A DNA stretch of 62,837 nt, filler included, from Rhabdomonas costata (GCA_019059605.1; 49 parts of 49 records of this genome joined end to end with filler, not necessarily neighbours in it); one strand, 5' to 3'; positions 5,145 through 51,627 are shown, counted from the first letter of the whole stretch. Notes: generated by a model not told the origin, from the letters alone. Numbers and translations are program-made.

Positions 5145-5247
5145 TTTGGTCCAAAAATCACAAAGAACACAGCAAACCGCTGTAAATTAGGGCCTTTGTC
5201 CATAATTTACAGCGGTTTGCTGTGTTCTTTGTGATTTTTGGACCAAA
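5145..5247. repeat. Terminal fold-back inverted repeat, 45-bp arms
   Basis: 5145-5189 is the reverse complement of 5203-5247 and abuts the contig start. Confidence 0.9.
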
Positions 5248-8667: not shown

Positions 8668-8705
8668 GTGTGCACCCAACTGAAACCCTATTCGCACCGA
8701 GTGGC

Positions 8706-8891
8706 TGTTGTGAAAACCATCTCGAAGGGAAAGCTGTGTCTCAACTCACTGTGCCAGTGGAGAACCCTGTGACCTTCCGCAGATTCCATCAGATTGATCT
8801 GATAGAACCGAGCTTGCGGGAGTGTAAATGGGTTCTCCACTGGCACAGTGAGTTGAGACACAGCTTTCCCTTCGAGATGGTTTTCACAACA
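8706..8891. repeat. Terminal fold-back inverted repeat, 62-bp arms
   Basis: 8706-8767 is the reverse complement of 8830-8891 and ends at the contig end. Confidence 0.9.
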
Positions 8892-9012
8892 ACCCNNNNN
8901 NNNNNNNNNNNNNNNNNNNNNNNNNNNNNNNNNNNNNNNTTAATTAATTAANNNNNNNNNNNNNNNNNNNNNNNNNNNNNNNNNNNNNNNNNNNNTTGTT
9001 GTGGGTCTCCAG

Positions 9013-10172: not shown

Positions 10173-11720
10173 ACACACCCNNNNNNNNNNNNNNNNNNNN
10201 NNNNNNNNNNNNNNNNNNNNNNNNTTAATTAATTAANNNNNNNNNNNNNNNNNNNNNNNNNNNNNNNNNNNNNNNNNNNNGTGGTGGGGGGTTTTATTTC
10301 CCCCTCTCCCACAGTAAAGACCTCCCATAGTTTTCGGGCTATAACTAAGAAAAAAGTTTAGGAAGAGGGAAAGGGAGGGGCGTAAATATATCGAGTTCGA
10401 CCCCCCAGCAAAGCGAATGTCTGCCGATGGTGCAGCACATGATCCGGGAGGGTCGAAGCGGGCGACGCATGGCGCCGACAGCGGGATCCATCGGTGGCCT
10501 CCCAGGAGAGAATTCCTGACAAACCCAAAGAATTATTTTTAAGGCAGGTGACTACGAGGAGACGGATGTGTGAGTGCGGGTCGGAGGAACCGCTGGAAAA
10601 AAAACACGATCCGAAAACAGCGCTGCGAAAGAGAAGAACATGCGGAACAGGAGTAACGTCTTTGTGAGGCGATACCAAGATCAGCACAGGGAACACAAAC
10701 GACCTTCCATCCCGTTGTAAGGTTGTCGTTTGACAACCTTCACGAACCTCCTCTTTAGAGCGGGGACGAGGATTTTTGAGTTCCCGAAGTGCACTGCTCG
10801 TGTTCGTCGTCGAACGGATGTCCAAAAACCCTTCCCACAATTGACGCGTCTGAAATTAACCCTGCGCCTTTCAGACATTTTGTCGAGCCAACGCACTCGA
10901 TCAGAACGTGGCAGGGATTGAAATGTCGAGCTTAGGAAGGATGCAGGGAGTTGCCGCAGTTTTCCTTTGGAGGAGGAACGCGAATCAGAATAGGGGAGTA
11001 AGCCGTCCCACACGGGTTTCCCCATTTGAACGTTCCAGAACGCCATAGAAAGGAAAACCAGAGCACAGGAACGGCACATACATGTCACCACCACAATGAG
11101 CGCAAGCTGCATGGTTAACAAAAGAAGGTCGACCACCTGGCATACAACTCACTAAGGAGAGCACCAATGTGTGGCAAAGGACGGCGAGAAGGAATGGACT
11201 GGATTGGATTTCTCGGGGACTGTCCTGTCTCCCTTAGAGGGGTCCCATCTCACAGCAGATGACCAGCATCCGAACTACACCCCCTGCCCCCAATACCTCT
11301 CTTGTCGCTCACCTCACCTCCACGGGTTCTACAGACATGCAACAACAGCGGGCGATAGATGGAGAGAGAGTTCCCAACAAATAAAAAAACCAAGAACGAC
11401 ACAGCAAACACTGCAAGGAAAGCTAGGGTGTGCACTCACTCCCACACGGATGGAACAACCACACCNNNNNNNNNNNNNNNNNNNNNNNNNNNNNNNNNNN
11501 NNNNNNNNNTTAATTAATTAANNNNNNNNNNNNNNNNNNNNNNNNNNNNNNNNNNNNNNNNNNNNGGGTGGTGGGGGGCGGGGTGACATTCTGCGGGTCG
11601 CACCGATTCGCATTTCGAGGGGTGATGCGATTTGGGCAACTTGCCGTCAATCCTCGCGCGCCGATTCCTCAAGGAGTTGCCTTCCTTGCCTTCCATTTGT
11701 GTGATACTCCCTCTGCAAAG

Positions 11721-12213
11721 GCCCTCGGCGTACGGCAAGTGGACACCTTGGAGGCTCTGCTTCGCCAGTCGGACGTGGTCAGTGTACACTGCGACCTGAA
11801 TTCTACCACAAGGCACCTGCTCAACAAAACCACCCTGGGCCTAATGAAGAAGGTTTGGTGGAATTGTGAGTGAGGAGTACCGGAGGCCTTTCAGATGAGT
11901 TCGTGGCGCGGCATGTTTTTGACAAATGGTGACTTTCAATTGCTCGAAGATCTCTTCTGTAATGTGCAGGGCTTAAATTGGTACGATTCCCACAGCATTG
12001 GGGTTTTTTGACGAGAGTTTGGTTTAAAACCTTGCACATTTCCTGCGCTGGTTGGGTTTGTCCCCTCCCCCCCATACACATGTTTGATTCCAGGGATGGC
12101 ATGGTGGGGAATGTGCGCTCAGGGGTCATTTCTAGTGAATACCGCTCGAGGCGGGATTGTGGAGACCTCCGCCCTCCAACTTGCTCTGCAGAGTGGACAC
12201 CTCGCCGGGGCAG
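11721..12213 (+). CDS. D-isomer-specific 2-hydroxyacid dehydrogenase, two exons
   Basis: Exons 11721-11852 and 12123-12213: TLEALLRQSDVVSVHCDLNSTTRHLLNKTTLGLMKK|GSFLVNTARGGIVETSALQLALQSGHLAGA; family motifs SDxVSxH and LVNxARG. Confidence 0.92.
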
Positions 12214-13279
12214 GTAGAACTGACAGTTTGGCACACAGTGCGGAGATTCCGCGGTCCTCGATTTTCGTTTGCTTCAACACGAAATGTGGGGGTCTTCTTG
12301 TGCTTACTGTGCGCAGCGGTTGCGGGAGGTCCACATTGCTTCGCTGCTGGAGAAGTTGCCTGTTGATCAACACTCTCACCTGAGCGCGGGATTTTCGTAC
12401 GTGGAAAACGTAAAAAAAACACCTCAAATGAATACCGACCCCAGCAATGGCCCTGTTCCCCGAAGCTCGAAACCTGCTAGAGCACAGTGTGGTACTGATC
12501 TTGCGGCATGCCTTCTGGTTTCTTATATGAGCGTCGCTAATTCCTTTCGATTCGGCAGCGAAGAAACACAACGGTGAGTTTGTCTGCAGAACGAATTCCT
12601 TCATCACAATGTGTTACCTTCACTATGATTCTCTGAATGGTCGTGGTCAAAAGCGAAACGGTAATGCAGCTGGACAGGACTTTCAATGTCGCTTAACACC
12701 AATTGGTTGAGCTCGGGTCTTCCGTTCGGGGCCGGCAGCGCACTCGATCCNNNNNNNNNNNNNNNNNNNNNNNNNNNNNNNNNNNNNNNNNNNNTTAATT
12801 AATTAANNNNNNNNNNNNNNNNNNNNNNNNNNNNNNNNNNNNNNNNNNNNTTTTGTGAGGGGAACAATGAAAACGTCGTGAAAATCATGACCGTCCTTCA
12901 TCAACCACGACAGTGGCCAAATGGCGAGCACTCACAGGCGAATCCCTATGACTGTCAGGTTTGGACAACTAAAAAATCGCATTCCGATTCCACGCCAGTA
13001 CTTCCACTCTGGGGACCCATCGCGGCCGCGAACTTCCTAGTCAATTCGCCCCCCCGGGGGGGGCTTCTTGGCTTCCCATTGTCGGAAGTGCAGCTCCACG
13101 GGCCAATGGCTGAGCAGAAATTCCATCCTGGCAAAAAACGGTTCTCCTGGTGCCCATGAAGTGCAATCGTCATCCACCAACTTAACTACTTTTCGAGGTA
13201 CCTTCCACTTCCCACTGAACGAGGGTTCATCGAGCAGAGGAGCATCCATGGCGTGTCCATGGGTTAGACCGGCCCTCCG

Positions 13280-14029: not shown

Positions 14030-14339
14030 CCACCNNNNNNNNNNNNNNNNNNNNNNNNNNNNNNNNNNNNNNNNNNNNTTAATTAATTAANNNNNNNNNN
14101 NNNNNNNNNNNNNNNNNNNNNNNNNNNNNNNNNNGTGGTGGTGTAAGCCCAACCTCTGCTGCAAGGTGACACGAGTATGTTACCGATGCCTGAGGCCTGG
14201 AGATGCAAGAGGGGAGTGTGAAGGGAGAGTGGAGGGGTGTCGAATTCCCACCGCTAACCCAGCACATGAACCAACCAACATGATGCACTGAAGAAGTGGT
14301 GATGTTGGAAGCATTCTGAGACCGAAAGCGTAGGGGTAT

Positions 14340-15120
14340 GAGTTCAGCGATTCAGTCGTCCCGTTCACACTCGGCTTTCAGCCTCCTGTTCATGTTCCTC
14401 CAACCATCATGTCGTTCACATTCGCTCCACTTCGTTACCCTCATGTTCTCTCCTGTTCCTATTCGTTCTGTTGATCACGGTTCACATTCACACTCGTCGC
14501 TGCGCTCCTGTTCATGTTCTCTATGTCGTCACATTCGCTACGCTCATGTTCCTCCTATGTAAGAGAGGGAGGTCCGAACGTGAGTGACGGCCGACATGAT
14601 AGTGATGAAGGGCTACGGCTACGCCTACGCTCCTGTTAATTGGTCGCTTCGTCATTCGCTACGCTAGTTCCTCGCTCCTCCTTTCACGTCTTCAGTCGCT
14701 ACGCTCCTTCCTCCTCTATGCTTTCTGTCGATCACGTGTCGTCGTGATGCTCGGTACCTCGCATCCCTCCTCCTACCATGGTTCACTCCCCGGCATAAGC
14801 CGGTACGTTCACAGGGTCACACTCGTCACATTCACTGCCTTCATGTTCCTCCTGTTCCTTGTATACGTTCTGTTGATTATGTTGAAGGAGATCCCGAAGG
14901 ACTTCCGCAGAATCCGAACCCGAAGACCGAAAGCGAAGACAGAAAGCGAAGACAGAACCCCAACAGCCGAACTCCGAACCCCCAAAGGCCCCCACGAACG
15001 TAGTGAGTGGGGGACCTTATCATAGTACTGTGAATGCACGTAACCACCCTTACGGTGGTGGAGTGCATGAACCATCACATTTAGGGAGTATGCGAGCGCA
15101 TGCGAGTATACGACCGGCAT
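14340..15120. repeat. Array of strand-specific G.A-ladder DNA hairpins (non-coding element, copy 1)
   Basis: Minus strand 14551-14529 GA-ACAT-GA-GC-GTA-GC-GA-ATGT-GA and similar units at 14482-14519 and 14650-14710; plus strand 14989-15013 CCCCCAC-GA-AC-GTA-GT-GA-GTGGGGG and 15088-15111. Shares blocks with 25702-26464. Confidence 0.8.
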
Positions 15121-15706
15121 GCAACTCGGGGCATTCGTGGGGTATCAGACATCATGGGCCCCTCGGTCACCTCTTCATCATCTTCCACCATCATGAGAGT
15201 ACGTAGGGGTGGTCACGCAGTGGGCACCCCGGAGTAGCATCAGGACCACCCAGAGTAGAGGGCATCGCAGATAGAGGTATCCGTAGGAGGGGCATGATGT
15301 CTGATACCCCACACCCACCNNNNNNNNNNNNNNNNNNNNNNNNNNNNNNNNNNNNNNNNNNNNTTAATTAATTAANNNNNNNNNNNNNNNNNNNNNNNNN
15401 NNNNNNNNNNNNNNNNNNNGGGTTGGTTTCCTTTTCTTAGATGGCTTTCGCACCAAAAAGGTGGATAAAGAGATCACGAACCGGAAGATGATCACTCGGA
15501 AAAGGGCAGAGACCAGGAATTTTGAATCGAATTACAAGTCCGTTAAGAGTCCAAGCTCAAAAGAGCCAGTGATGCGAACAGAACAATGAGCGCACTACCA
15601 TCGTTTCCATTACCGGGATACAGGGAAATCGTTGGTGACAGGACTGTGGAAATAGTTTGGAAAGGAATGGCAGACGAGGTCTTTTTGTGTGTTCGGCCAT
15701 TGTCAG

Positions 15707-15957
15707 GCTCCGAGGAGGAGATCATGTGCTTCGCCAAGGATAACTACGCCGTGGACTTCCCGCTGATGTCCAAGGTGAACGTCAACACCCCCTCGGAGTG
15801 CCCCATGTTCACCTTTCTGAAGGGTGGGCCAGCGGGCACACCGATCCGGTGGAACTTCACGAAGTTCCTGGTTAGCCGCCAGGGCGCCGTGGCGCGGAGG
15901 TTTGAGTCCCGTACCACCCCCGAGGAGATCGCTCCGGAGGTGGAGAAGCTCCTCTAG
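15707..15957 (+). CDS. GPX: Glutathione peroxidase family, last exon
   Basis: ttgtcag acceptor; GSEEEIMCFAKDNYAVDFPLMSKVNVN...PMFTFLK...IRWNFTKFLVSRQGAVARRF...EVEKLL*; WNFxKFL signature. Confidence 0.93.
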
Positions 15958-16598: not shown

Positions 16599-16710
16599 CA
16601 AACANNNNNNNNNNNNNNNNNNNNNNNNNNNNNNNNNNNNNNNNNNNNTTAATTAATTAANNNNNNNNNNNNNNNNNNNNNNNNNNNNNNNNNNNNNNNN
16701 NNNNGGTTTT

Positions 16711-16811
16711 GGGTAGCGAATTCACTGTGGCGCACTTCGACAGCTTCCCAAAGTAAGTCAGAGACCTCCTGAAGGAAGCTGTCGAAGTGCGCCACAGTGA
16801 ATTCGCTACCC
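16711..16811. repeat. Terminal fold-back inverted repeat, 38-bp arms
   Basis: 16711-16748 is the reverse complement of 16774-16811 at the contig start. Confidence 0.9.
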
Positions 16812-18039
16812 ACTACGCCGCGCAGCTCCCCACTCGCCGACCTCACCGGTGCCACCACAGGAAGGGCCAGCACAGCGCTGGTGGTTCCGGTACTCGCGCT
16901 CGAGGTGCCCCCCGAGCGAAGCAACGAGGCGTACACGGGGGCGAAGGTCACGGGTACGGCCGTCGTCGCCCCAGCTTGATACCACAGCTGTGACGGAATG
17001 TGAATGTGTCCCGAAACCGTTCTTTGACAGGTAATCCACTCTATGTCACTCTGTGACTGTCAGAACTGCTACACATTCTAGGGCACACATTCTAGGGCTG
17101 AGAGTCGCCTGATGTATGGGGTTGAAGCCGTACGGCGTGCGTCAGAAAACATGTCATCCCATGCCATCTTCAAAAAGACTGTCCTTCACACCTAACTACG
17201 CCTTCGCAATTTCCACCTGAAAGTGTAAAGGACCGGAGATTTAATCCAAAAAAGTATCCCCGCGCTCATTTTCAAACCGTATTTTTCCTCCCAGCCCGAA
17301 GAAGTCCATTACTTCGCTAATATCCACGTTCCTACGTGCACTACAACTCTGAGATCAGAGGCATAACAACAGGTCAAAAAGACTATCGCTCGGAATGTTA
17401 TACTATTCTCTCCAATCAAGTTAACAACTTGTTTGCAACGCAGTGCCAAGTGTTTCGGTGCAACACTTGCTATAACAAGGAGATACAGGTGGTGCAATGA
17501 CGTTATCACACCAATGTGCTCGTTATTTCTACTACGAGAAGAAAGCGAATGTGCAGTGCTGTCACGGCATCTGAGCAATGGCCTCCTGCCTGAATCACCA
17601 CTTCCATCCCCCACCTTTCCCCACTCTTCGTGTTCGTCCCAAAGCGAGGCACTGAGCAGGGGGCAGAGATACTTCCATTGCGTGGTGTGATGATCTGGCT
17701 GTTCTTGGGGAGGCAGGATCCAAAGCGACCCAAAAAACATTACCCCACGTTGTTCAAGAAACCGTTTTTGCCGTGTCCGAACAAACCCCGACCACATCTG
17801 CAGCATCAGGCCAAAGGGAGCCGCCTCTGGATCCAGAGAAGCAGCACCAGCCCAAACCTAAAAGTTGCAACCGGAGTGAACAACCCCCCNNNNNNNNNNN
17901 NNNNNNNNNNNNNNNNNNNNNNNNNNNNNNNNNTTAATTAATTAANNNNNNNNNNNNNNNNNNNNNNNNNNNNNNNNNNNNNNNNNNNNGGTGTGTGTGA
18001 GCTTATAATGGGGTTCGCGGCCCAATACCTTGTTCATCG

Positions 18040-19172: not shown

Positions 19173-19373
19173 NNNNNNNNNNNNNNNNNNNNNNNNNNNN
19201 NNNNNNNNNNNNNNNNTTAATTAATTAANNNNNNNNNNNNNNNNNNNNNNNNNNNNNNNNNNNNNNNNNNNNGTTGTTGTTGAACCTTCGCATGCCTTGC
19301 ACTTGAGTGGATGAAAGGTCACTTTTGTGTTGTGAATGGTAAACGGTCCCTGCTGCATCCGAAAACAGCGTAC

Positions 19374-19910
19374 CATTGCCACAGCAATTCCGCGCTGCGC
19401 CACACGATTGCCACACCCCTGTGCGGAGCAGGAGCAGCCCTGCCCACACTCCACCACAGGCAGGGCGCACGCAGAGCCACTGCCTGGAAGCACCCTCCCC
19501 TCACCGTCGTACCCGCCGGCCCCTCCTGCAAGGCCAACACAGTGGCACAGACCCATTCCACGGCAGCAGCGGGGACCCCATGGGGGGCAATCACAGCCAA
19601 ACGGCTCCGCGGCCGGCGCATCCAAAGGAAGGCTAGCGGTGTACCGAAAGGCAGGCCAGCCTGGGCCCTCGTAAAGGGAGCGCGCCACCCAGACTTTGCC
19701 TTCCAGAGGGTAAATGTCGTCTATAGAGGTGGGGCTGGGAATATTGTCCCCTTTATTGCCATCACTGTCCGTGGCAAAAAGCTCGCCATCATGCATATGG
19801 TGAAAGAAATCAGAGGATAAGGATGATAACGTTGAAACAGATTCGGTGGCTGACCACCAACCGGGTCCTGCGCCGGAGGCCGAGAACTCCCCAACTCTGG
19901 CAGTGCACAC
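19374..19910 (-). CDS. Pre-SET domain histone-lysine methyltransferase (SUV39/SETMAR-like), partial
   Basis: PAFRYT...GCDC...CC...CHC...YDGEGRV...VVECGQGCSCSAQGCGNRVAQRG, then a GTACGC donor at 19373. The 5' boundary is uncertain (possible acceptor at 19721). Confidence 0.85.
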
Positions 19911-20197
19911 ATATTTTCAATAAAACGCCACTCGCAGCAAAAGGAAACGAAACCATGGAATAAGTCATGTAAACACGGCAACTGAAGTAGCAGTTCCCCC
20001 AGACACTTCCTCAACAGAGTTCCCCCAAAAAGAATCTCACGTCAACATCGCAACTGTCCTCCCAATGTTTCATGTGCAGCAGGTTCTTTCACGCTGCGTC
20101 CCGGTTCGTGAATTCTTCAGCGAACGGGCGAAGGCAACACCAGCGGCCCGCATTCATTCAACAGTTCCTCCAACGCGGCCCTCATTCGGCCACGCCC

Positions 20198-23454: not shown

Positions 23455-25034
23455 TTTTGGGAGGGTGCGCGTTTGAACGTTTGTGCAACAAAATAACAAA
23501 GCCGCCAGATGAGTGAAATCTGAGCAATGGTAAGGAGAAAACTGCATTCGGAGACACGAATGAGGCCCCGGTGGCACCTTCTTGAGCCAACAAAGCAAAG
23601 CGGACGCTCCTCCTGTACATGAGTTCCCAGCCCCACGACATAAGCACAAGCCGCTTATACTTCCCATTCCGATGTTAACTCTGTTACGGCCTATCCGGGG
23701 AGACCATCGTTATAGGGTTTGGTTTATTTGTTCTTTTGCTTTATCACGATCTTACGAAGACACGGACACTGGAATCCCAAAGGACGCCTGCGCTGCACTG
23801 GAAATCGTACAGTGCCCCCCCTCTCGTGTTGCAGTTCTCTGGAAACTGCCACTGAACGGAACGAACTGAATCGTAGGGTTACACAACACATTAACACAAC
23901 ATCGATTGCCGGGTGACAGCTTGGACATTGGCCAGAGTCAAGGGCATTGTCATGCCGATACACGGGTATTGACGGACCACAAAAAGAGAATGTGGCGCTC
24001 TCGAGGTCAGGGAAGGGGGGGGGGTGATACCTGTGCCCACTGTTACCAGTGATGTCCGTAATTGCCACTCCACCCCATTCCACCCCAACTTCCATGGGCA
24101 GGCAATTTAGGAATGAAGAAATTATAAACAGCACTCACAAAAGCTGAAACCCTCATAGACGAAATACGAGCCCGCACCGAGAGCTTACTCCCACCCCCGG
24201 CTTACATTTGGAGCGTTCTCTTTATTATAAATGGTTTATTGTCATACCGGATACGGGGTTAGTTCATCAAAATAGGATGAGCTAGCGACTTAGTTCCTGC
24301 ACCAACACACAANNNNNNNNNNNNNNNNNNNNNNNNNNNNNNNNNNNNNNNNNNNNTTAATTAATTAANNNNNNNNNNNNNNNNNNNNNNNNNNNNNNNN
24401 NNNNNNNNNNNNGGTGGTGGTTGCAATTTCGTCTCACTCCACGCGTGCGAGGCACGAAACCCGAAACATAAGGGAACGTCTTCAATGAAACAAACCAGGA
24501 CGTGGCAAATATGTGAACAAAAACGTCCCATGTGGCCGAATTACCCACCACCTTCTCTTCGTTCCCCCTTCCCCATGGTTACCTTAGATGCTCGACTACC
24601 TTTTCTCTTCCACTGAAGCTGATGAATGAGCTTGTTCCCCGCATATGGGCTGATGCGTAGTGACAACTCACCGCTCTCAGAAAGAAATTAGCATTGGAGT
24701 TGCGCGTTTTGAGAACCTACGAACTCCATTCGCTCCTGCAGGAGCACTTTGTGGTGTGTGTATGAGCCTGCAGTATGCCCTCTGTGCGGCTTGCTCGGGA
24801 TCAGCGCACTCTCTCCATTTTTGCGCGACCCCCATAAGTGTGGCGTTCCAGGTCTGTAGCGGATCTGGAACACCAACGCTGGCGTGAAATCCGAGCGTAG
24901 CCGAACGCATGCCGCACTTCTCGCGGCTTTTCACGTGCCTCGAGTTAAACGACGCACTCACACACGCATGGTTCATGACATGCATGCTCGCATCGCCTCT
25001 GTGCCTTTTTTGCCACACCCGAGACACCATTCAC

Positions 25035-25056
25035 GTGTGTGTGTGTGTGTGTGTGT
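25035..25056. repeat. (GT)n microsatellite
   Basis: gtgtgtgtgtgtgtgtgtgtgt. Confidence 0.85.
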
Positions 25057-25701
25057 GACACAGTCTCATGTGTGTGTGTGGAGGAGTGTATAATTTCCTG
25101 GTATGTGTGAGTATTACTGTATAGTTTCCGTGTATGTGAAAGCAGTGCAATGTGGTTTTCTCCGCACAGTAGTGCGTGCCTTTGTCGGTGATCTGTTTCT
25201 ATCCATCACTATCTCTGATCTCCTTTCTTTTCCTATCCTTTGCTGACTACTGTGCACAACCCCAAAAACATTGTTTCTCCAGTGCAGGTTCCTTTTTTGC
25301 AAATTGCCTGTTGAGGTGGCTGTGTGCTTTGTCTACGCAAAAAGGCAGTCTTGCTAAAGTGTTCCTTCACACTCATGTCACATGCCCAGTGCCCGTCCCG
25401 TGATATACTGAGGCAGACATACGTGGAGCGGAACAACAGCACAACATTGTATTCAGAAAACTCCATATTTCACCACTTTTGTCTTCCCCATGAAAATGGA
25501 TTGCGCCACGGCAGATTAGGCGCTCACACCTAAGAAAAAGACAAAGTAACTTGTTCGACAAGTTCAGCAAGTTCAGAACCTCCTGCTCCACAACCACNNN
25601 NNNNNNNNNNNNNNNNNNNNNNNNNNNNNNNNNNNNNNNNNTTAATTAATTAANNNNNNNNNNNNNNNNNNNNNNNNNNNNNNNNNNNNNNNNNNNNCCT
25701 T

Positions 25702-26265
25702 AGGGCCCCCACGAAACGCAGTGAGTGGGGATTGGAGGCATGAACGTAGTGAATGCCGACAGGATACAGGAACGAGGGAGCGCAGCGACCGAGTGACAAG
25801 CAACATCTTCTGTATCTGTGAGGGAGCGTAGCCGCACCGCGGTGGAGCGACCGAACCACTGCATTTAGGAGGAGATGCTGACCGTAGGGAGGCATCGACG
25901 ACATCAACATCTTTTACCCCTAGAGGCTCATCCCGTCGCTCCCCACCATTTAAGGTGGTTCGCTCCTCTCCTCTTCACTCTTCTTCTTTCTTCACTCCCA
26001 GGGCCCCCACGAAACGCAGTGAGTGGGGATTGGAGGCATGAACGTAGTGAATGCCGACAGGATACAGGAACGAGGGAGCGCAGCGACCGAGTGACAAGCA
26101 ACATCTTCTGTATCTGTGAGGGAGCGTAGCCGCACCGCGGTGGAGCGACCGAACCACTGCATTTAGGAGGAGATGCTGACCGTAGGGAGGCATCGACGAC
26201 ATCAACATCTTTTACCCCTAGAGGCTCATCCCGTCGCTCCCCACCATTAGGTGGTACGCTCCTCT
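25702..26265. repeat. Tandem direct repeat, period 298 nt, made of G.A-ladder hairpins (non-coding element, copy 2; hairpins continue to 26464)
   Basis: 25702-~25968 is nearly identical to 26000-~26265. Hairpins at 25737-25757, 25770-25796, 25874-25896, 26381-26419 and 26435-26456. Confidence 0.9.
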
Positions 26266-26987
26266 TCACAACCCCCTCAACTCATGCCTTTACTATACCT
26301 GTCTCTTCGCATCCTTACACCGTCATAAGACGCTTACAGGATGCTCCGACCGGGCGAGGCCGGAGGGAATACCATGAGAGGAGTGAACGAGTGGACCGGG
26401 TACCGGGGAACGAGTGAACCATCATTCTTAGGGAGTGAGAGACGCAAGGATCTCACGACCGGCAAGAACACAAAATACACCCTTACACCCCTAGAATACA
26501 AGAAGGCCCTCAGAATGCATTAAGGTGGAAGGAACGAAGGCATGGTGCTTGTCGACATGCCGTAGTAGAGAGTGTCTGCGAGGCGAGGATGGTTGGGAGT
26601 CGGAGGAATGCCTCAGGGTACGTGGAAGGTCTCAAGGCATCACGTCAAGGCCTCACATCACCCTCTCACCTTCAGACGTAAAACCCTCACGTGACCTCAG
26701 AAATCCAGACCCTCGAACCCCAGACCTCCACAGAAACGAAGAACCCTCTGACACCCTGAGAACACAAAGCGTAGTACAGTCATGCATCGAGCCACTCACA
26801 ACACTCACACCCTCCAACTTCTGACCCTCACACCCAAAAACGTGACCCTGACCCTCCAACTCCACACACCCCTCCTGACACCCNNNNNNNNNNNNNNNNN
26901 NNNNNNNNNNNNNNNNNNNNNNNNNNNTTAATTAATTAANNNNNNNNNNNNNNNNNNNNNNNNNNNNNNNNNNNNNNNNNNNNGTGT

Positions 26988-27073
26988 GGGGTTAGCATCC
27001 AGGTGCGCCAGAAGGTTTCGATTTCCAGTTCCACCATAAAACGAGAATGCCTGGCCACCTGGATGCTAACCCC
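26988..27073. repeat. Terminal fold-back inverted repeat, 18-bp arms
   Basis: ggggttagcatccaggtg versus cacctggatgctaacccc. Confidence 0.8.
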
Positions 27074-30838: not shown

Positions 30839-31237
30839 GGAAGGAGGAGCGCAGCCTCGAGGGACACACCGATTCCGTCAACGCGGTAGCCGTGACTCCG
30901 GACTGGAAGCACATTGTCAGCGGCAGTCGCGACAAGACCATCAAGGTGTGGAACCTGGATACTGGATGTGAAACGTGTTGCCAGGAGGATCTCGCCGATA
31001 TTCTGTCGGGTGCCCAGCGTTTTGCCTCGGCTGGCGTCAGCACTGGGTTCCCTTTCGTTAGTTCCCTTTTTATGAGTGTCGGGTACCATTACCACGTTAG
31101 TGATGTTCAGTATATGCTTCTTTCTGATGGTGCCGACGCCCCTCCAGTTTTTCGCAGAGCCAAATGGTCCCCCCACAGCTGCCGTCAACAGCGACGATGC
31201 TGAAGCCGATCCTGGAGACGACAAGCTCGACGACTAG
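30839..31237 (+). CDS. WD40-repeat protein, last two exons
   Basis: [38 protein letters not shown]; exons to 31009 and 31158-31237 ending in TAG. Confidence 0.88.
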
Positions 31238-31897
31238 GACTCTTCGTTTTCTGCACATCTCGCTCTGCCTGAACATACCTTTTAAATGTCGGATGGACCC
31301 ACACTCCCTTGTCCTTCAAACTCGCTCCTTTCCTCCACTCACTCTGTACATACCCACCCTCTCCTATCCCTCATGTCTGCTCTATTCCCTTCTGATTGGT
31401 TGCCCTCTCCAGAGTTTGTGCATTTCTCCCTGCGTTCTTCGCCACAGTTACCTGAACGACAGTGAGAGTAATTTTCTGTTGTATCCGTTTCCTGAAAGCC
31501 GCTAGTGTGTGTAGTATTGGACAAAAACATTCAGAAGTCAAATCTTGGTTTTTGTTTGTGTAGGTCACTGGTTTTGAAGCGTACGGGATCATGGGGACGC
31601 CCCCCTCCTATCAAGTCCATGTTGCCCCCCCCCTGTTTACCGTGCATTTTACGGACCCAATGATGCATTGAGGGTGTGTTGCGCGGGGGGGGGGCTCTGC
31701 AACCCTCCCCTCCCCCGCACTCACATGCATATAGGGTATGCGCACATCGCTCCCTAACCCCTGCGACAGCTTCTGTCATGTGATAAAATTGATCTTCGCC
31801 ATTTTAGGAGAGAAAATGGCGGAATGGGGGCTCGTTCACTCATCAGCACTTTCGAGACTCGCTGGAGCACTGTGGCTGTGGCTGTGGCTGTGGCTGT

Positions 31898-32015
31898 GTG
31901 TACTGCTTCAGACGTACCTAAATGGCTTCGGATGAACCTATATGGACCTGTAAGTCATACCCTCTGGGTCCATCTTGATTCTTGATTCCATTTAGGTACG
32001 TCTGAAGCAGCACAC
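31898..32015. repeat. Terminal fold-back inverted repeat, ~28-bp arms
   Basis: ctgcttcagacgtacctaaatgg versus ccatttaggtacgtctgaagcag at the contig end. Confidence 0.85.
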
Positions 32016-35000
32016 ACACAACNNNNNNNNNNNNNNNNNNNNNNNNNNNNNNNNNNNNNNNNNNNNTTAATTAATTAANNNNNNNNNNNNNNNNNNNNNN
32101 NNNNNNNNNNNNNNNNNNNNNNGGGGTTTGGGCTTTTGGAGGTGCGAATCTGTGATTCAACTGCATTTATTTGAACGCTCTTTGTGAAGTGTTGCGATGG
32201 GTCGTGCCTGCCCACAGTGATCGTGAAGCAGGTTCGAGTAAGTGCACAAGCCTGTCTCCGCTGTCACTGCATGCCACCTGGTGTCCAGGGATGGAATTTT
32301 GCCAGACTGTTGACTATGGGTTGTGGTTTTTCAAAGGGGGTGCCTCCTCCTTGCGAAGTGGAGGTGTGCTTCGCGCCCAGCCTCAGGCTGCAACGCGGGG
32401 TGGAGCGGGTCCGCGCCGCGGCCCTGATCTCCGCCGTTTTCGCGGAGGCCGCCGTGGAGAAGTAATCAGACTGCTGGCGATATCTATATGCGGGTCCGCT
32501 GGCGAAACGTAGGCTTTTGATGCCGACTGTTGTATTTCCTATGTGTGTATGTACATGTGCGTGCGTGCCGGTGCAGAGGAACGGCTTGCAGTTTTGCATG
32601 TTCGGTGACTCAATGTGGTGCAGATGAGGTTGGTCGCGCCAGAGGAGAGTATGGGAAGATTCTGGATCGCTTGCCGTTGTGCAGACCTCAGATCTCGATG
32701 TTGTCGTCCCAATGTGTTTTTGTGAAGACCACCTTGCGCTCTCAGAAGAGAAGGTAGCTGAAGTATTACAAAGTGGCATCACCTTTGTTTCAGAAGTGAA
32801 GAGGCATTCTGGTGAATTTCTGGTCGTCTCCCCCACCCTTTCTCGTTGCCAGAGGGCGAACTCGTCGTTTTCTTCACCAGTCTGTATTCTCAAGTTCTTG
32901 GTTTGATTTAGCTTGGGTGGTTGTCTATCTTCGGATGAAAAGCTACTCCCCTCTGAGTGGGGAGGACCCAGACGGTGGGAGTATGCCGCTGCGTCGTCAG
33001 TAGGACCCGCTCACCTCTGCACCACCCGCGCCCCAGGTAACGGTTTGCTGCCTCAACTCATTGCTTGTTTCACCACTTTATGTAATAGATTCTACTCTGG
33101 GTTCTCCGCCTCTGAGAAGCGTCTTGTTTGGTTTGGGAACGCTGGCACGCTTCTCCCGTGTGGGAAGAAGCCACTGATTGTTTGGCTTTGCTTTCTTTGG
33201 CTTTGCTTCTATTTGTTGCTGATGGGTATGCCTTTGTATCTTTGGCAGGGGATGTTGCCCCTACCTGTGCCGTCTGCCCCTGCCGAGATACAAAGGCATA
33301 CCCACNNNNNNNNNNNNNNNNNNNNNNNNNNNNNNNNNNNNNNNNNNNNTTAATTAATTAANNNNNNNNNNNNNNNNNNNNNNNNNNNNNNNNNNNNNNN
33401 NNNNNGGGGGTGTGTGTGAGAGTTTGCGAGCGTGAGAATGAAATACGCCCTGAGCTTTAGGCATCAATAAAAGAATACCCCCACCACGGGTGCAACCAAA
33501 GCCAAGCCAAAGGAAATGGGCAAACAGTCGCCTAGTGACAGAAGAAAAACAAAAAGAAGGGGAACAAGGGCGGGCCAACCTTACGCAAGGTAAGGAGGTC
33601 CGAGATAAGGTCAGTGGGCTCATCGTCAGGTTCTTTGCAACTGCGGGATTGAGGTCGACTTTTTGTGGGATGCTTCGCATTTAAATCGGAGGATGGGTCG
33701 GGTTTTGCATGTGCGAGGTAAGGGGTGAAGGGATGATAGATGCACAAGGCTGTGGTTGAGATGGGCTTATGAAAGAGAGGGTTTCCCACACAAACATCAA
33801 ACTGTCAGAACTCCGAGGAAAGTTGCACATCAAATTGAATAGTTTCCTTCAGTAGCCTTAAAGCAACCACGGTAAGCGAAAATGTGTTTTTCTGGTTCAA
33901 AAACGGCACCCAACTCACCCACTCAAATTCATCAGGAAACACTCACAGCCGCACTTTATTCAAACAATATGGGTGAAAATCGAAACTTTCCCCCCTCCAA
34001 ACCTCTGTAACCTCTGTAATGTCTTCCTTTTTAGAAACGTTTTCCACCTCTTAATTTTTTAATTTTGAGGTCAAACGGGCAGTATATGTGAAATATGTTG
34101 TTCGGTGTGTTTTTTACGGATCGAAGATGTGAAGGCTGTGAAGGTTTCGCGGTGTTTTCAAGGTCTCAGTTGAGTAATATTCAGCGGACTGCAGGATACG
34201 TGACCTTATTTTGTTTTCAGCTCCGGCTCACTCTGCGGGTGAGAGTTTGGGTGGTCCTTTCTTGCGCTCAGCATTGCGGGTTTTTTTGGTTGCTAGTAAG
34301 TTTCGTTTTTGATGTGCCCAGCTTCGCCTCGGCTTGCCGGGGCTCTCCGCTGCAAGCCCTGTAAATAGTATTTAGACTTCCCTGGCTTGTCTATAAGTCG
34401 TGAGGTTTGTTTTTAGGTGCCCTGGTTTTCTCCAAAAGGGCAGGGCCCACCGAGGCCCCCGCTCTGCCCCCCACACCCCAGTTTCCCAGTCTACCAAAAG
34501 GACATGTCGCTGCTGCCCCAAAGCCATGTCATCGACACGATCACGCGGCGGTGGAAGCTTCTGGAGCACCCGCACAAGCCACCCAAAACCNNNNNNNNNN
34601 NNNNNNNNNNNNNNNNNNNNNNNNNNNNNNNNNNTTAATTAATTAANNNNNNNNNNNNNNNNNNNNNNNNNNNNNNNNNNNNNNNNNNNNTGTTGTGGGT
34701 TCTGGGACTTCGAGGGGTGGTCTGCCGTTCATTCTTATCCATCAATGTTATTTTCAAGGTGCACTCTGTTTGTCAGGCAGTAAGTGTTCGTGGATCGGTG
34801 GATCAGTGTACCCTGCACTCACCGTGCGGGAGCGCGAAGGAGAGGGAGACTGGGGTGGAGGGGGGGGGGCGTGGTCCTCCTTCTCCTACCCCCTTCGATT
34901 CTTTTTCCCTTTTTCATTTTCTCTTTCCTTTTCTCCTTCCCCGTGGCGATGGTGCAGACCAGACTTTGCCCCGCGCCTCCCGTGCCGGATCCCCCTCCTC

Positions 35001-36846: not shown

Positions 36847-37586
36847 GAAAATACGCCACCGTATGCCCTGCACTATTGCCGTTTTCACACCGTGTATTAT
36901 TGACGCCTCTGAGAGGTGAGACGCCGACCAGCACCTGGAAACGGCGCTACCACCGGAGATTTATCGTTTGCTAGTGGTTGCACTTCTGCCGCAATCCCTA
37001 TGGTCTTTCTGACAATTCATGCATTGAACTGAGAACTGAGAACCTCGCACGAGGCACGACGCAATCCCTTTCGCTTGCTTGTCTTCCACAGATCTATCTG
37101 AACTGGAGACTGGCGATGCTGAAATTGGTCGCTACCCCGCCCCCCTTCCCAACCACCCNNNNNNNNNNNNNNNNNNNNNNNNNNNNNNNNNNNNNNNNNN
37201 NNTTAATTAATTAANNNNNNNNNNNNNNNNNNNNNNNNNNNNNNNNNNNNNNNNNNNNGTGTGGGGGGATAAACTCATTGTGATGAGCGGAGCAAATCAT
37301 AGAAGAGAGGAAGGAAAAAACCCGTCAACTTGAAATTGGCCGGCATGTCCAGGGTTGTAGAAATACCCCCGCCTGCATTTTTCCTTCCTCTCTTCTATGA
37401 TTTGCTCCGCTCATCACAATGAGTTTATCCCACTGTCTCACAACCTTTATGGTTCCCATACATATACACAAGGGGTGAGCTGGTACCTCACTTCACTGTG
37501 GGTACACTTCGGTACCTGCCCTAAGGACCCGCTGGCAGGCTGGCAGTCTATTATAGTTGCTAATAACCAGTCAGGCAACAGCCGGT

Positions 37587-37587
<1 letters not shown>

Positions 37588-37615
<28 letters not shown>
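37588..37615. repeat. (CA)n microsatellite
   Basis: acacacacacacacacacacacacacac. Confidence 0.85.
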
Positions 37616-37618
<3 letters not shown>

Positions 37619-37939
37619 GTGCACGTGGCCAGAGTGAAATTTTTGTGGTGAGGACTCGAGGTCCCCTCTGGGCTTCCACCTTTCCCATCAGCCCATCGGG
37701 CCATCGCGTCTCACACACTTACACCCTTGTCGGCCCACGGTGCCTTGTCCCTCTCTCTCGTCACGTGGGGTTGGTTAACACCATCTGACCCCTGATAATC
37801 ACTGTACGCGGGGCCTTGAGAATCCTGATTGGCACGTTTGCAGATAGACCTTTACACACATACAGACTCAACGAGTTCCACGTCAGGTAATCTGGTTGGG
37901 TGGAAACCGGACCATCGCCCCCTCTGCCCGGCAGAACAC

Positions 37940-39105: not shown

Positions 39106-39241
39106 GAGCTGAAGGAGCTGGTGCAGCTGCACACGGACCACGGTGGGCTGCTGGTGGAGGGCGAGGGCGGGGAGGAGGGTCTCACCCATGACGAGTGCAC
39201 CATCATTCGCGGCGCCCTCGACATGAAACTCAAGACGGCCG
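39106..39241 (+). CDS. CNNM: CNNM/DUF21-CBS metal transporter exon
   Basis: ELKELVQLH...GLTHDECTIIRGALDMKLKTA matches ELKxLVxxH...LTxDExxIIxGAL; AG/GT flanks. Confidence 0.88.
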
Positions 39242-40095
39242 GTGTGTGTTTGTGTGTTTGTGTGTGCGTCTGGTGTCCAAGAGGTGCTCGAACTGCATTG
39301 CCGCTGTGGATTGCAGGTTGGCGGTTGGTGGTTGGCGGTTAGCGATTGGCAGGGCACGGCTGGCAGTTGGCAGTTGCGAGTGTCTGTGGGTACCCTGTGG
39401 GTTTTCTCATTTCGATCCATCGATCGATTGAAACCGTACCCATGCAGACGCATAGGGACCAAGTCTTTCAAGGCACATCCCCAGCATTATGGCCAAAGCT
39501 TCGCTGAAAAGTGCGTTTTAGATTCGCTTTTCAAAACGCCATCACAAGTTGTTGTGTGGCTTTCGCTCCTTCGCAGAAACTAAACTAAAAAACTACTTCA
39601 CAGAAACTAAACAGTTGTGGCAGCATCAGCCGTCCTTCACTGCGAGCTTTTGCCAACAAACGGGACCCTACGATCGGGATCGGGAGGAAAGCCGTAAGGT
39701 TCAACTACTCCCCAGTTTATACAGGCCNNNNNNNNNNNNNNNNNNNNNNNNNNNNNNNNNNNNNNNNNNNNTTAATTAATTAANNNNNNNNNNNNNNNNN
39801 NNNNNNNNNNNNNNNNNNNNNNNNNNNTGTTTGTTTGGCGCGACCATTGTGCATTACTTACCTTTTCTGTATCCAATTAAAAGTGGTATTAGTGATATTG
39901 TGACTTGTGCGCCTCGCCCTGTTTTTTCCATGGATTTCTGCCGCCGTGTCTCGAAATCGAAACTCTTCCTCCCATGACGTGGGAGATTTCAACCGCAGTG
40001 TCTTTCTCTGATTCGGAGGGTCTCCCAATTTCCGGGTGCCCAAGTTTGGCCCTGCCGCTCCCGTGAAAAAACTTTCTTCCCCGCTTGCCCAAAAG

Positions 40096-49500: not shown

Positions 49501-50125
49501 GAAGAAGGTGGGGCTTTTCTTTGCCGCCAGCCCTCTATGAGCCCTTTTTTACTTCAGTTGCGCACGCTTTTTGATCTCGGGCCCAGGATCTCGGGTTTGG
49601 GTCCATGTGCAGGGCGTTCTCCTTGTGAATGAGCGCACCTTGTTTTTCCTTTCAGGCCAGCAGAGGAGCCCTCTAAGACAATTGGTGGTCGGAATTGGTT
49701 CCCCTGCCAATGCAGTTTCTGTGCGGGGTACAGGGCGGGGCACGAGAGTCGAAATATATGTTTTGGCTTTTGACGACAGGTGGAAATGGGGAAAATTTGG
49801 ACGGTGAGTGCAGACGGGGGAAACCAGCTCCTGGGGGCATTCAGTGGTTAGCATTGCTTTTCTGTCATAGTTTTGCTACCCCTCCTCCGTCCCCTTAAAT
49901 AAACTAGTTTAGTGAGAGAAAAACCGAAGTGTCCAACACCATTTTGCTAACGTAAATGCATTTAGAGGTAGTGGGCAGTTTGCCTAACCCCCCAACCNNN
50001 NNNNNNNNNNNNNNNNNNNNNNNNNNNNNNNNNNNNNNNNNTTAATTAATTAANNNNNNNNNNNNNNNNNNNNNNNNNNNNNNNNNNNNNNNNNNNNGTG
50101 GGGGATGGGCCGGTGGTGGATGCCC

Positions 50126-50889
50126 GCGCAGCGCTGGCCCAGCGGGATTCCGAGGTTGCCACCCTGGAGGCCATCATCGCCGACCTGCGGGCGCAGGCAT
50201 CCACCACCGGCCCATCCCCATCTCCATTCCTATCGCCCAACTCCAGCCCTGTCTTTCGTTTTCTACTAGTGTCTCTTATTTTTTTGCCGTGGGTGGTCCT
50301 TAGCCTCAGCCTTAGCCTCAGCTTCGGCCTTTGTTGCGGGGAGGCACGCCTTATTTGAATGGCATGGTTGTGGGTTGCTCCGCTTTTTTCCTCTGCGCTG
50401 TCCTGTCCATTGCGTTCTCTCCCCTTCGCAGCTTGCTCTTCCCCTCTTTTGTGCTGTCTCTCTCTTCTCTGAATGGGTTGAATTGGGTGGTTCTGTCTGC
50501 TTCACTTTCCTCCCTCTCTCCTGCTCTCATAGGAGTGCCACCTGAGCTCTTCTGCAAAGGAGAGGGAGGGCGCCCTTGCGAAGATGCAGAAGCAGCTCCA
50601 GGACACCAGTGCGGTCTGCGTGCAATCTTAATCTGTTGTTTTGCTGAGATTTTCCTAGGACGTGTGCCCACTCTGCACAGCATAAGGAAGGAAGGTTGAC
50701 AAGCGTACTCCGCTGAAGAGTTGGTGCTTGGGTTCATAGAGTTCCAACAGCGGAGAGATCGTCTCCCGCAGAGATTGACCTCACACACTCGCATGCACCC
50801 TATTCCACCCATCGCAGGAACGTGACGAGGCGGTGTCCCGAGAGAGACAGGCCCTTCTGAGGGTGCACCAGCTCAGCGGAGACTTGGAG
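50126..50889 (+). CDS. Coiled-coil protein, three exons
   Basis: ...RAALAQRDSEVATLEAIIADLRAQ (to 50196, GC donor) | 50533-50613 | 50818-50889, all phase 0. The contig's first ~25 nt are a fold-back of 50196-50219. Confidence 0.6.
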
Positions 50890-51405
50890 GTGCTCCGGAC
50901 AGAGGTCTCTTAGGGCAAGAGGAGTGATCTTTTTCTGTGGTGGTCGCTCCTTCGTCTCACTCAAGCGTGGACGCGAGACGAGAAAAAAGAACAAAAGGGA
51001 ATGTCATCAGTAAAACAAACGTGCACATGACAGCAGTGTAACAAAGCGTGCGGCCGGTTTCTGTCCTCGGTCCACACACAAGAATTGTACAAGACACCGA
51101 GGATCGATGGATTCCCTTATGCCGCAAAGCCGACCGTGGTGTGCTTTTCGTCGTTCTTCACGCTTCCGGTTTCCTGCAGACTCACATTGCTACTTTCCGC
51201 ATCGCACCCGCGTATCTCCGCATTTGGATGCGTGCCTAAGAATAGAGAGCGGCGTGGTGCACTCAGTCACATTGTGGACGANNNNNNNNNNNNNNNNNNN
51301 NNNNNNNNNNNNNNNNNNNNNNNNNTTAATTAATTAANNNNNNNNNNNNNNNNNNNNNNNNNNNNNNNNNNNNNNNNNNNNGGGTGGGTTGGGTGTGTCT
51401 GGTGT

Positions 51406-51627
51406 GGTTGTGAACGAGTCTTACCAGATGGAACAGGTTTCAGACTCTTCTTTCTGTCTGGTGCTGTTCTATTCCTTTGGGCACGAGTCTATTGCCGCCT
51501 TGCTGCGTTGTGACATAAAGAAGCAAGAAAAGCCATGGCAATAGACTCGTGCCCAAAGGAATTGAACAGCACGAGACAGAGAGAGGAGTTTGAAACCTGT
51601 TCCATCTGGTAAGACTCGTTCACAACC
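51406..51627. repeat. Diverged inverted duplication (91-bp arms) of a glycosidase exon end + intron start
   Basis: 51406-51496 versus reverse complement of 51537-51627: 5 substitutions, all in the intronic part. Confidence 0.9.

Follow-up and report, generated by a model that had tools for sequence, protein, structure and literature searches.

What kind of DNA keeps the shape of its hairpins while the sequences of their stems drift? This question is raised by contig 21 (c21) of a Rhabdomonas costata assembly (GCA_019059605.1). The contig covers positions 25698-26883 (1186 nt, GC 0.555) of the window analyzed here, a stretch of 62,837 bases in which 49 separate contigs of 1183-1186 nt are separated by N/TTAATTAATTAA spacers. 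The first-pass annotation had described c21 as the second member of a family seen at 14987-15119 in contig 12 (c12; 14135-15319, 1185 nt, GC 0.538). It had further proposed diverged molecules with a constant region and unique flanks. The analysis supports the family and not the molecules: c12 and c21 each hold a piece of the same non-coding repeat family, which belongs to an intron-bearing eukaryote. The family is real and specific, and it appears to be undescribed. Repeats are usually defined by their sequence. Here, non-Watson-Crick G-A steps, their closing pairs and the loops are kept, and the paired steps drift and compensate.

Hairpin modules and their organization

Reading both strands and scanning with descriptors revealed a recurring element of the form (G)-GA-[stem 4-7 bp]-GA-[1-2 bp]-[loop]-[1-2 bp]-GA-[stem']-GA-(C). 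Such a GA-laddered hairpin spans 25-40 nt of the purine-rich strand. Its loop is mostly C-GTA-G or C-GCA-G, and these two together with C-GCAA-G form the inner loop of most modules. Nearly all conserved letters belong to the tandem GA/GA mismatches, to the pairs that close these and to the loop, while the Watson-Crick steps vary freely yet stay complementary; the GA dinucleotides are kept in every doubly bracketed hairpin listed. The modules H1, H2, ladder (L), H3b and H4 follow each other in this order and form a unit of about 300 nt.

On its plus strand, c21 (25698-26883) holds a pair of near-identical units and a diverged third one, followed by a tail rich in ACCCT. The first unit, U1, is 298 nt long (25702-25999, +). 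It starts with H1 (25707-25730; CCCCAC GA AACGCAGT GA GTGGGG; RNA folding z-score -2.04), which has the inner GA bracket only. This is followed by H2 (25735-25759; GA GGCAT GA AC-GTA-GT GA ATGCC GA; RNA z -3.32), a hairpin with a double GA bracket closed by G-C in the context TG ... CA. The ladder (25770-25796; GA AC GA GG GA GC-GCA-GC GA CC GA GT GA) has the same design as the GA-laddered hairpins, reduced to 2-bp steps, of which there are three with GA/GA between them, as had been claimed. The next module, H3b (25832-25842; CCGC ACC GCGG), is a simpler hairpin ahead of GGAGYGA..GAACCA..T(T)AGG, and is followed here by block 2, GGTGGAGCGACCGAACCACTGCATTTAGG. The last is H4 (25872-25898; GA GATGCT GA CC-GTA-GG GA GGCATC GA; RNA z -4.27). 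Each 298-nt unit closes with a pyrimidine-rich stretch that holds a reversed, H3b-like module on the opposite strand. In U1 this is CCACC TTAAAT GGTGG between GGAGCG-type flanks (25943-25958, -), identified by its sequence context.

The second unit, U2 (26000-26265, +), repeats H1 at 26005-26028, H2 at 26033-26057, the ladder at 26068-26094, H3b at 26130-26140 and H4 at 26170-26196. In a self-comparison, 25702-25950 and 26000-26248 match over 249 nt at 100 % with a spacing of 298. Tandem Repeats Finder (TRF) reports a period of 298 with 1.9 copies and 98 % matches, the sole long-period array among the 17 rows for the window, so the tandem unit of this length in the first-pass annotation is borne out. 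U1 and U2 first differ at offset 249, where a 2-nt indel changes the hairpin loop between CCACC and GGTGG from ATTTAA to ATTA; the minus-strand H3b-like hairpin of U2 (26241-26254) thus keeps its stem and has a loop 2 nt shorter. Past this offset, the units are diverged homologues (25953-25969 versus 26249-26265, 94 % over 17 nt), and the likeness stops at about 26265. That the 3' parts of U1 and U2 differ, though they are homologous, means that the genome holds at least two copies. The third unit, U3 (26372-26531, +), is diverged and partial. It contains a degenerate H2-like piece, H3b (26396-26406), block 3 and H4 (26433-26458; GA GTGAGA GA C-GCAA-G GA TCTCAC GA, closed by GG/CC; RNA z -4.05), and also carries GACCGGCA, CCCCTAGA and CATTAAGGTGG.

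In c12, the unit is shortened and rearranged, with modules in both orientations: 14350-14880 on the minus strand, and 14563-14600 and 14987-15119 on the plus strand. The region 14987-15119 is a shortened unit of H1, an H2 remnant, H3b and H4. Its H1 (14989-15013; CCCCCAC GA ACGTAGT GA GTGGGGG; RNA z -3.63) has a 7-bp stem, one pair longer than the CCCCAC/GTGGGG of c21. H3b (15044-15058; CCACC CTTAC GGTGG) is followed by blocks 2 and 3 (15057-15087), and H4 (15086-15113; GA GTATGC GA GC-GCAT-GC GA GTATAC GA, closed by GG/CC; RNA z -2.95) is directly followed by GACCGGCA, which ends at 15119. The stems GTATGC/GTATAC, GTGAGA/TCTCAC and GATGCT/GGCATC within a common architecture are therefore as they had been claimed.

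The minus-strand region of c12 carries H2-like, ladder-core, H3b and H4 modules. A first H2-like module (14826-14848, -; GA ACAT GA AGGCAGT GA ATGT GA) was among the training sequences of the covariance model described below (E 2.5e-8). H3b (14790-14803, -; CCGGC TTAT GCCGG) is followed by GGAGTGAACCA. H4 (14746-14765, -; GATGC GA GGTACC GA GCATC) is a non-training match of the same model (E 0.017), and its flanks TAGGAGGAG and CGACGACA are the same as in U1 of c21. A second H2-like module (14529-14551, -; GA ACAT GA GC-GTA-GC GA ATGT GA) was found by descriptor scan and is followed by the ladder core GAGCGCAGCGA at 14507-14497. Within this region, one H2-like module with the stem GG(T)CCG/CGGCC lies in the opposite orientation (14563-14600, +; E 8.8e-6, training sequence). 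The H3b stems, which were read directly from their sequence context, are CCGC/GCGG, CCGG/CCGG, CCACC/GGTGG (twice) and CCGGC/GCCGG. In the spacer between the minus- and plus-oriented modules, TRF places 2.8 copies of the 13-nt tandem repeat CGAAGACAGAAAG (14921-14957, +). The 16-nt tandem repeat GACAGAAAGGGTCGAG of contig 49 (61200-61234) shares the word GACAGAAAG with it, probably by chance.

Similarity between the two contigs

All three ordered blocks named in the first-pass annotation are present in both contigs. Block 1 consists of GGCCCCCACGAA and AGTGAGTGGGG, which occur exactly in both (25704/26002 and 14987/15002); its pattern had no match in 100 shuffles. Block 2 is identical at 22 of 29 positions (25841-25869 versus 15057-15085). 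Block 3, TGAACCATCA-NNN-TTAGGGAG, occurs only at 15068 and 26415, and none of 100 shuffles had two or more matches. Another common word is ACGACCGGCA. The hairpin flanks that the first-pass annotation took for conserved blocks, TTAGGGAG before and GACCGGCA or GACGACA after the hairpin, belong in part to the outer GA bracket and to the pairs closing it.

When each was aligned locally with the 48 other contigs, c12 and c21 had each other as the best partner in both orientations, with scores of 43 and 51 compared to 32 and 30 for the next best. In shared 8-10-mers, too, each is the outlier of the other. Contig 7, which is second in the k-mers shared with c21, was rejected as a family member because its words are scattered and non-collinear. 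The exact words common to c12 and c21 measure 10-13 nt and lie in gapped alignments of 36-72 columns. Searching with blastn at word size 7 gave no high-scoring segment pair (HSP) between them at E<=0.01, so the similarity sits in short modules and not in long alignable stretches. A long alignment of the 3' half of c21 with the minus strand of c12 was not significant.

Specificity and covariation

The hairpins are strongly enriched in the two contigs. Contig c21 has 7 hairpins with a single GA bracket (4 of them distinct), c12 has 3 and the remaining 47 contigs together have 13, while 100 shuffles gave expectations of 0.46 and 0.42 for c21 and c12 (maximum 3 and 2) and 12.3 for the whole set. 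Of the doubly bracketed type, c21 has 5 (3 of them distinct), c12 has 4 and the remaining 47 contigs have 1 in all; the expectation from 200 shuffles was 0.02 for c21, 0.015 for c12 and 0.55 over the whole set. The motif GARCGNAGYGA occurs 11 times in the window, four times each in c12 and c21 and three times in the other 47 contigs. All seven single-bracket hairpins of c21 lie on the plus strand. As the opposite strand offers TC/TC, which cannot pair, and the hairpins of c21 are all on one strand, the structure belongs to the purine-rich strand alone.

Profile searches of the window led to the same two contigs. An nhmmer profile of six modules gave 11 matches at E<=10, every one in c12 or c21. 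A covariance model, built solely from six H1/H2 modules and run with filters off, gave 39 matches at E<=10. The ten with E<0.1 all lie in c12 or c21, and include two non-training matches at 14740-14773 (-; E 0.017) and 14686-14717 (-; E 0.041). The H4 modules were found at E 0.18-0.21, and the 19 matches in other contigs start at E 0.17.

The proposed structure-preserving changes in the stems are confirmed by counting pairs. In the six H1/H2 modules, both sides change in 6 of 9 pairs, and 79.6 % of the cells are paired, compared to 58.7 % in shuffles (0 of 500 reach the observed value) and 22-45 % when the partners are slid. For H4, pairing was counted on hand-chosen coordinates, because the MAFFT alignments were not structure-consistent. 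In the four hairpins compared, the two arms of a stem pair at 6, 6, 6 and 5 of 6 positions, compared to 1-5 when a 5' arm is combined with the 3' arm of another hairpin. Positions -1 to -5 show two to four pair types each, and 5 of the 6 positions have at least two. The H4 stem of U1 equals that of the c12 minus strand plus one inserted T-G pair beside the GA. Kept GA steps together with compensating stems are expected of a functional RNA or a single-stranded DNA signal and not of neutral junk.

Predicted folding

RNA parameters predict the proposed architecture as the minimum-energy fold of individual modules, with z<=-1.8 in 8 of the 11. The ladder is its own RNA minimum-energy fold as well, with an ensemble frequency of 0.916 and a z-score of -2.05. 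The local hairpins persist within the minimum-energy fold of the whole 298-nt unit. In the available text of PMC10085684, CGAG blocks are described as tandem C:G, sheared G:A, A:G and G:C pairs, and DNA hairpins in which GNA-type loops cap such blocks are thermally stable according to NMR. By sequence, the nine doubly bracketed hairpins of c12 and c21 belong to this motif class, while their physical folding is predicted. On these predictions and the NMR precedent in DNA, the folding species may be either RNA or single-stranded DNA.

Searches for known relatives and functions

The family matches the non-coding character of a satellite, as none of the 50 open reading frames (ORFs) of at least 30 aa in c12 and c21 (genetic code 4) reached the Pfam cut-off, with a best E-value of 0.022. 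A coding reading of the recurrent HSLRSC peptide was rejected since codons are not expected to give complementary stems with conserved loops between them. No tRNA was found. At gathering thresholds, the whole window had no Rfam match. In E-value mode (E<=10), there was one match in c21 and there were five in c12, all of them with E>=2.1 and below the gathering thresholds. The only C/D-box family among the Rfam matches was sR30 at 15143-15188 (E 3.2), which lies outside the modules.

Searches in other sequence collections gave chance-level results. Distant-mode blastn against 72,556 plasmids returned 20 matches, all with E>=1, from Clavibacter (13), Curtobacterium (2), Rathayibacter (2), Xylanimonas, Frigoribacterium and Niallia (1 each), and none from an enterobacterium. 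The viral contigs had no match to the three patterns scanned. In the prokaryote genome contigs, block 3 matched at five loci and only over 21-34 nt, with about 17 matches expected by chance (18 fixed bases, 596 Gb). The H1 pattern hit one metagenome locus, on a contig with 72 % GC, where the match covers only about 24 nt and was treated as chance. This contig (L001, 42-64, -) holds the same 23-nt hairpin, CCCCAC GAACGCAGTGA GTGGGG, inside a longer and apparently intergenic palindrome. It is otherwise unlike c12 and c21, and the match is probably accidental, yet it is another natural GA-bracketed C-GCA-G hairpin. In the searched literature, which leaves out most subscription journals, no paper prints any of four family-specific strings of 21-25 nt; generic 11-mers match only papers that print vector sequences.

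The first-pass annotation had also noted a resemblance of the ladder to the primosome-assembly region of ColE1. Vector backbones carry a mini-hairpin which we take to be this primosome assembly site. In the part of PMC6125127 available, the printed vector-backbone primer CGAGCGCAGCGAGTCAGTGAG shares the 11-mer GAGCGCAGCGA and the following AGTGA with 25777-25797. The resemblance itself thus stands. Homology does not, as an 11-mer and a 5-mer are all that is shared with the printed primer and the plasmid matches are at chance level. Judged from these sequences, the likeness is one of mini-hairpin type and not of ancestry.

Base composition

In dinucleotide relative abundance, no other contig of the 49 deviates as much as c12 and c21 do. 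Their AA/TT values are 0.78 and 0.88 compared to 1.26±0.10 in the other contigs, those of the GC dinucleotide 0.68 and 0.65 compared to 1.00±0.12, and those of GA/TC 1.25 and 1.27 compared to 1.00±0.09. The AA/TT and GC deficits are also found in the non-module flanks. Therefore, both contigs lie in compositionally distinct DNA over their whole length. Their observed/expected CpG ratios of 0.86 and 0.76 are within the range of the other contigs (0.78±0.08), which leans weakly towards the nucleus.

The C/A-rich tail of c21 (26660-26883, +; GpC relative abundance 0.32) contains nine ACCCT words in irregular ACCCTNN repeats over about 200 nt, compared to a window mean of 1.24 words per contig strand. 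A similar G-rich stretch is present on the other strand at the 5' end of c12 (14195-14245). A telomere reading was rejected because only single TTAGGG or TTTAGGG words and no arrays were found.

Interpretation and alternative explanations

The reading preferred here, for which the chances are about even, is a repeat of the nuclear genome, either satellite-like or dispersed, with a purine-rich strand that folds. This strand would fold whenever it is single-stranded, be it in a transcript or, as DNA, in the course of replication or transcription, and selection would keep the shape of the hairpins. The probable cause is either a structure-specific factor that reads the G-A steps or the fold-back itself, which would matter as a non-B DNA domain of the type proposed for centromeric satellites. 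Head-to-tail repetition is found in c21, with two units and a third, diverged partial one, and the mixed orientation of the modules and the low-complexity DNA next to them also fit a repeat. An abundant family is plausible, as 2 of 49 contigs belong to it (95 % interval 0.5-14 %). If it is abundant, its many natural copies would allow three questions to be tested: whether sheared G-A ladders and GNA loops, seen so far mostly in NMR of oligonucleotides, exist in vivo and have an effect there; by which protein they are read; and whether DNA prone to fold back is the mark of a particular compartment, chromosomal or extrachromosomal, of this protist. Even a low-copy family would be a clean case of a repeat that evolves with its structure preserved.

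Several results weigh against this reading. Satellites are defined by long arrays and a high copy number, and the sole figure here is the 2 of 49 contigs given above. The tandem adjacency comes from a single junction in an assembly with chimera-like contig ends. The covariation was counted on 4-6 related copies in two contigs, as copies and not as independent events; as they are few and related, what the counts reveal is compensation between paralogues. DNA parameters give z<=-1.69 for only 6 of 11 modules and do not predict the ladder, although these parameters may undervalue sheared G-A pairs. The 298-nt unit as a whole folds no better than its shuffles (z -0.89 for the RNA plus strand, -0.97 for the RNA minus strand and +0.06 for DNA). 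Outside the modules, the alignment of c12 with c21 is not significant, with a score of 24 compared to 12.0±4.4 and a maximum of 34 in shuffles. In addition, a separate compartment or replicon would explain the composition of the two contigs as well as a heterochromatic repeat domain does.

Single-strand-specific enzymes recognize hairpins that are conserved in structure and variable in sequence. This principle fits a non-autonomous mobile element, either Helitron-like and HUH-dependent, a miniature inverted-repeat transposable element or the tail of a short interspersed nuclear element, in which a transposase, Rep or reverse transcriptase would recognize the hairpins, and read-through or tandem insertion would account for the tandem copies. 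The presence of the family at two or more loci, in both orientations and as mosaics of shortened units, is in line with this explanation, which is nonetheless considered unlikely. Helitrons are defined by 5'-TC and 3'-CTRR ends, by a hairpin some 10 nt ahead of the 3' end, by their insertion between A and T and, if autonomous, by a Rep/helicase. The sequence CCCCTAG(A), which lies 24-35 nt 3' of H4 in all three units of c21, loosely recalls the 3' hairpin and CTRR end, but CTAG is followed by A and not T and is absent from the plus-strand copy in c12. Neither termini nor target-site duplications nor terminal inverted repeats are definable within contigs of 1.2 kb. No fragment of a Rep, helicase, transposase or reverse transcriptase was detected among 172 ORFs of the window and the 50 ORFs of c12 and c21, and the many hairpins per unit are atypical of transposon ends.

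The molecules proposed in the first-pass annotation are part of another explanation, in which the family is organellar or extrachromosomal non-coding DNA, such as a constant-region-like segment, a minicircle core or a small replicon, with the hairpins acting as single-strand signals in replication or transcription. This is judged improbable. In its favor, the dinucleotide signature of c12 and c21 sets them apart from the other 47 contigs, flanks included, and GA-bracketed GNA mini-hairpins are stable as single-stranded DNA (PMC10085684, in the text available). Diplonema mitochondrial DNA is G+C-rich, mostly non-coding and repeat-bearing (PMC3035467, available part). Diplonemid constant regions are by definition more than 90 % identical over more than 100 bp (PMC7049700, as far as its text is available), and values of 97-98 % are given within a class (PMC7049700 and PMC3035467, in the same parts). 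The likeness of c12 and c21, with exact words of 10-13 nt and no HSP, is far below this and does not support a constant region of the diplonemid type. The modules of c12 lie in both orientations, whereas the repeat motifs of D. papillatum are all co-oriented in the available part of PMC3035467. Both contigs are arbitrary fragments of about 1185 nt like the other 47, and blastn found no self-match joining the two ends of c12 or c21, so nothing suggests a circle. The ordinary CpG ratios also argue weakly against this explanation. As to gene-bearing flanks, no code-4 ORF of c12 or c21 has a Pfam match. Mitochondrial modules can be short, diverged and edited, and a random piece of 1.2 kb would usually miss a cassette of about 300 bp, so the missing gene module is probably weak counter-evidence.

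Dinoflagellate minicircles carry a plastid gene or gene fragment and a core that is nearly identical between the circles of one species. A plastid minicircle of this kind is not supported, as the 50 ORFs include no plastid protein family and the two contigs share no long core.

Many small-RNA genes are arranged in tandem. The repeat could accordingly be an array of genes for small structured RNAs, with the unit of about 300 nt or the single modules as the product and selection acting on RNA shape only. The exact architecture and good z-scores obtained with RNA parameters in 8 of 11 modules fit this idea, as do three G-T(U) wobble pairs in the stems and the strand-specific GA brackets. It is doubtful nevertheless, because no Rfam family was found even at E<=10 in the sense that all six matches remain below the gathering thresholds, the whole unit is no more stable than shuffles, and the units differ far more than homogenized RNA gene arrays usually do. 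Kink-turns have a 3-nt bulge between a canonical stem and tandem G-A pairs. A kink-turn RNA of the box C/D, L7Ae-binding type was rejected, since the GA dinucleotides abut the stem on both strands and no module has a bulge beside its GA pairs.

A bolder version of these ideas is that the hairpins are functional single-strand signals of an abundant non-coding DNA outside ordinary chromosomal sequence, such as constant-region-like DNA of a highly diverged multipartite organelle genome or of another small replicon, or that transcripts of the units make up a new class of structured satellite RNA, with periodic tandem G-A pairs that a dedicated protein reads. It is a speculative proposal with little probability. 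If either form were true, shape and not sequence would be under selection across hundreds of copies.

Assembly context and other features of the window

Snap-back palindromes with near-perfect arms of about 40-90 nt and a non-palindromic center were observed at the start or end of 11 of the 49 contigs (5145-5247, 8703-8894, 16710-16812, 26988-27073, 31895-32018, 33223-33304, 37266-37431, 50101-50219, 51406-51627, 55017-55128 and 61660-61791), and spaced inverted repeats at one end of contigs 12 and 13. They look like chimeras from whole-genome amplification or an assembler artefact, and caution is needed with any inverted junction in this assembly. The self-comparison of c12 shows a perfect 20-nt inverted repeat near its end (15137-15156 / 15293-15312), which was judged to be a contig-end snap-back as in other contigs, outside the hairpin family. 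Because of the snap-back ends elsewhere, this inverted repeat, the tandem junction and the inversion junction of c12 are to be distrusted.

That the duplication, the orientation switches or the shared blocks were made by amplification chimeras or the assembler is very improbable and, for the family itself, largely refuted. Such contig ends speak for it, as do the start of c21 only 4 nt before a repeat unit, as if the assembly broke at the repeat, and the fact that one junction each underlies the tandem adjacency and the inversion of c12. But artefacts copy exactly, while these copies have diverged and their stem changes compensate. Moreover, the 3' parts that follow in U1 and U2 are homologous yet different, two unrelated contigs carry the family, and conserved GA brackets around variable stems cannot be produced in this way.

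The protein families detected in the window by Pfam (172 ORFs, 22 + 150) are exon-sized eukaryotic fragments only. They include a Pre-SET histone methyltransferase fragment (19221-19916, -), WD40 fragments of two proteins (30841-31200 and 54535-54906, +) and a GSHPx (glutathione peroxidase) fragment (15547-15954, +). A 2-Hacid_dh_C domain is split into two exon pieces within 11568-12380, which cover profile positions 66-119 and 116-150. From the sequence, a putative phase-0 GT...AG intron of 270 nt (11853-12122) separates these pieces, and a further GT follows the second exon at about 12214. Based on the exon-sized fragments and the putative intron, the window is a sample of a badly fragmented, intron-bearing and gene-poor eukaryote genome. 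Two other similarities between contigs were noted in it: an 86-column stretch common to contigs 20 (24413-25597) and 40 (50098-51281) with 74 % identity (E 2e-7), and a CA-type microsatellite common to contigs 20, 30, 31 and 34 (25035-25060 versus 37585-37620 and 39240-39270).

Comparison with known systems

Parts of the described organization are found in several known systems. The constant regions of diplonemid mitochondrial DNA, in the available parts of PMC3035467 and PMC7049700, are likewise non-coding and G+C-rich, with dispersed and tandem repeats common to several molecules. Their DNA is described there as abundant, which the c12/c21 family may be as well. In contrast to these near-identical regions with their co-oriented repeats, identity in c12 and c21 is confined to short modules in mixed orientation, and neither a gene module nor a circle was seen.

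Bacterial REP elements and the attC sites of integrons are hairpin families in which the shape and a few unpaired or mismatched bases are kept and dedicated enzymes read the single-stranded DNA. The principle of a kept shape with variable stem sequences is the same here. These systems differ in being prokaryotic, in having known cognate enzymes and in their motifs, and no such enzyme was seen in this window. The mini-hairpin of ColE1-type vectors, GA GC-GCA-GC GA, is of the same GA-bracketed C-GCA-G type in the available part of PMC6125127, but it is a single hairpin there, while a modular family in a eukaryote is found here.

With regard to single-strand folding, two satellites of pericentromeric or centromeric DNA are close. 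In the dodeca-satellite of Drosophila, the purine-rich strand folds with G-A pairs. The same is described, in the available text of PMC11014236, for the purine-rich strand of human satellite III, (ATGGA)n. The present family shares with both that it is tandem, non-coding and strand-asymmetric, and that G-A pairs are predicted to stabilize the fold-back of one strand. Unlike these simple repeats of 5-12 nt, it has a complex unit of about 300 nt with diverged modules and covarying stems.

A close structural match is the CGAG-block hairpin of the AUTS2 promoter region, as described in the available text of PMC10085684. It has a canonical pair, tandem sheared G:A/A:G pairs and a canonical pair in the same register, with a GNA-like cap. 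In particular, the ladder of c21 has CGAG opposite CGAG, and the H4 hairpins of c12 have C-GA-G on both arms on either strand. The AUTS2 case is one simple CGAG-rich tract of a human promoter whose fold was seen by NMR. In c12 and c21, where the fold is predicted, variable Watson-Crick stems of 4-7 bp interleave the GA steps, and the hairpins form a family of modules arranged in units of about 300 nt, both in tandem and inverted.

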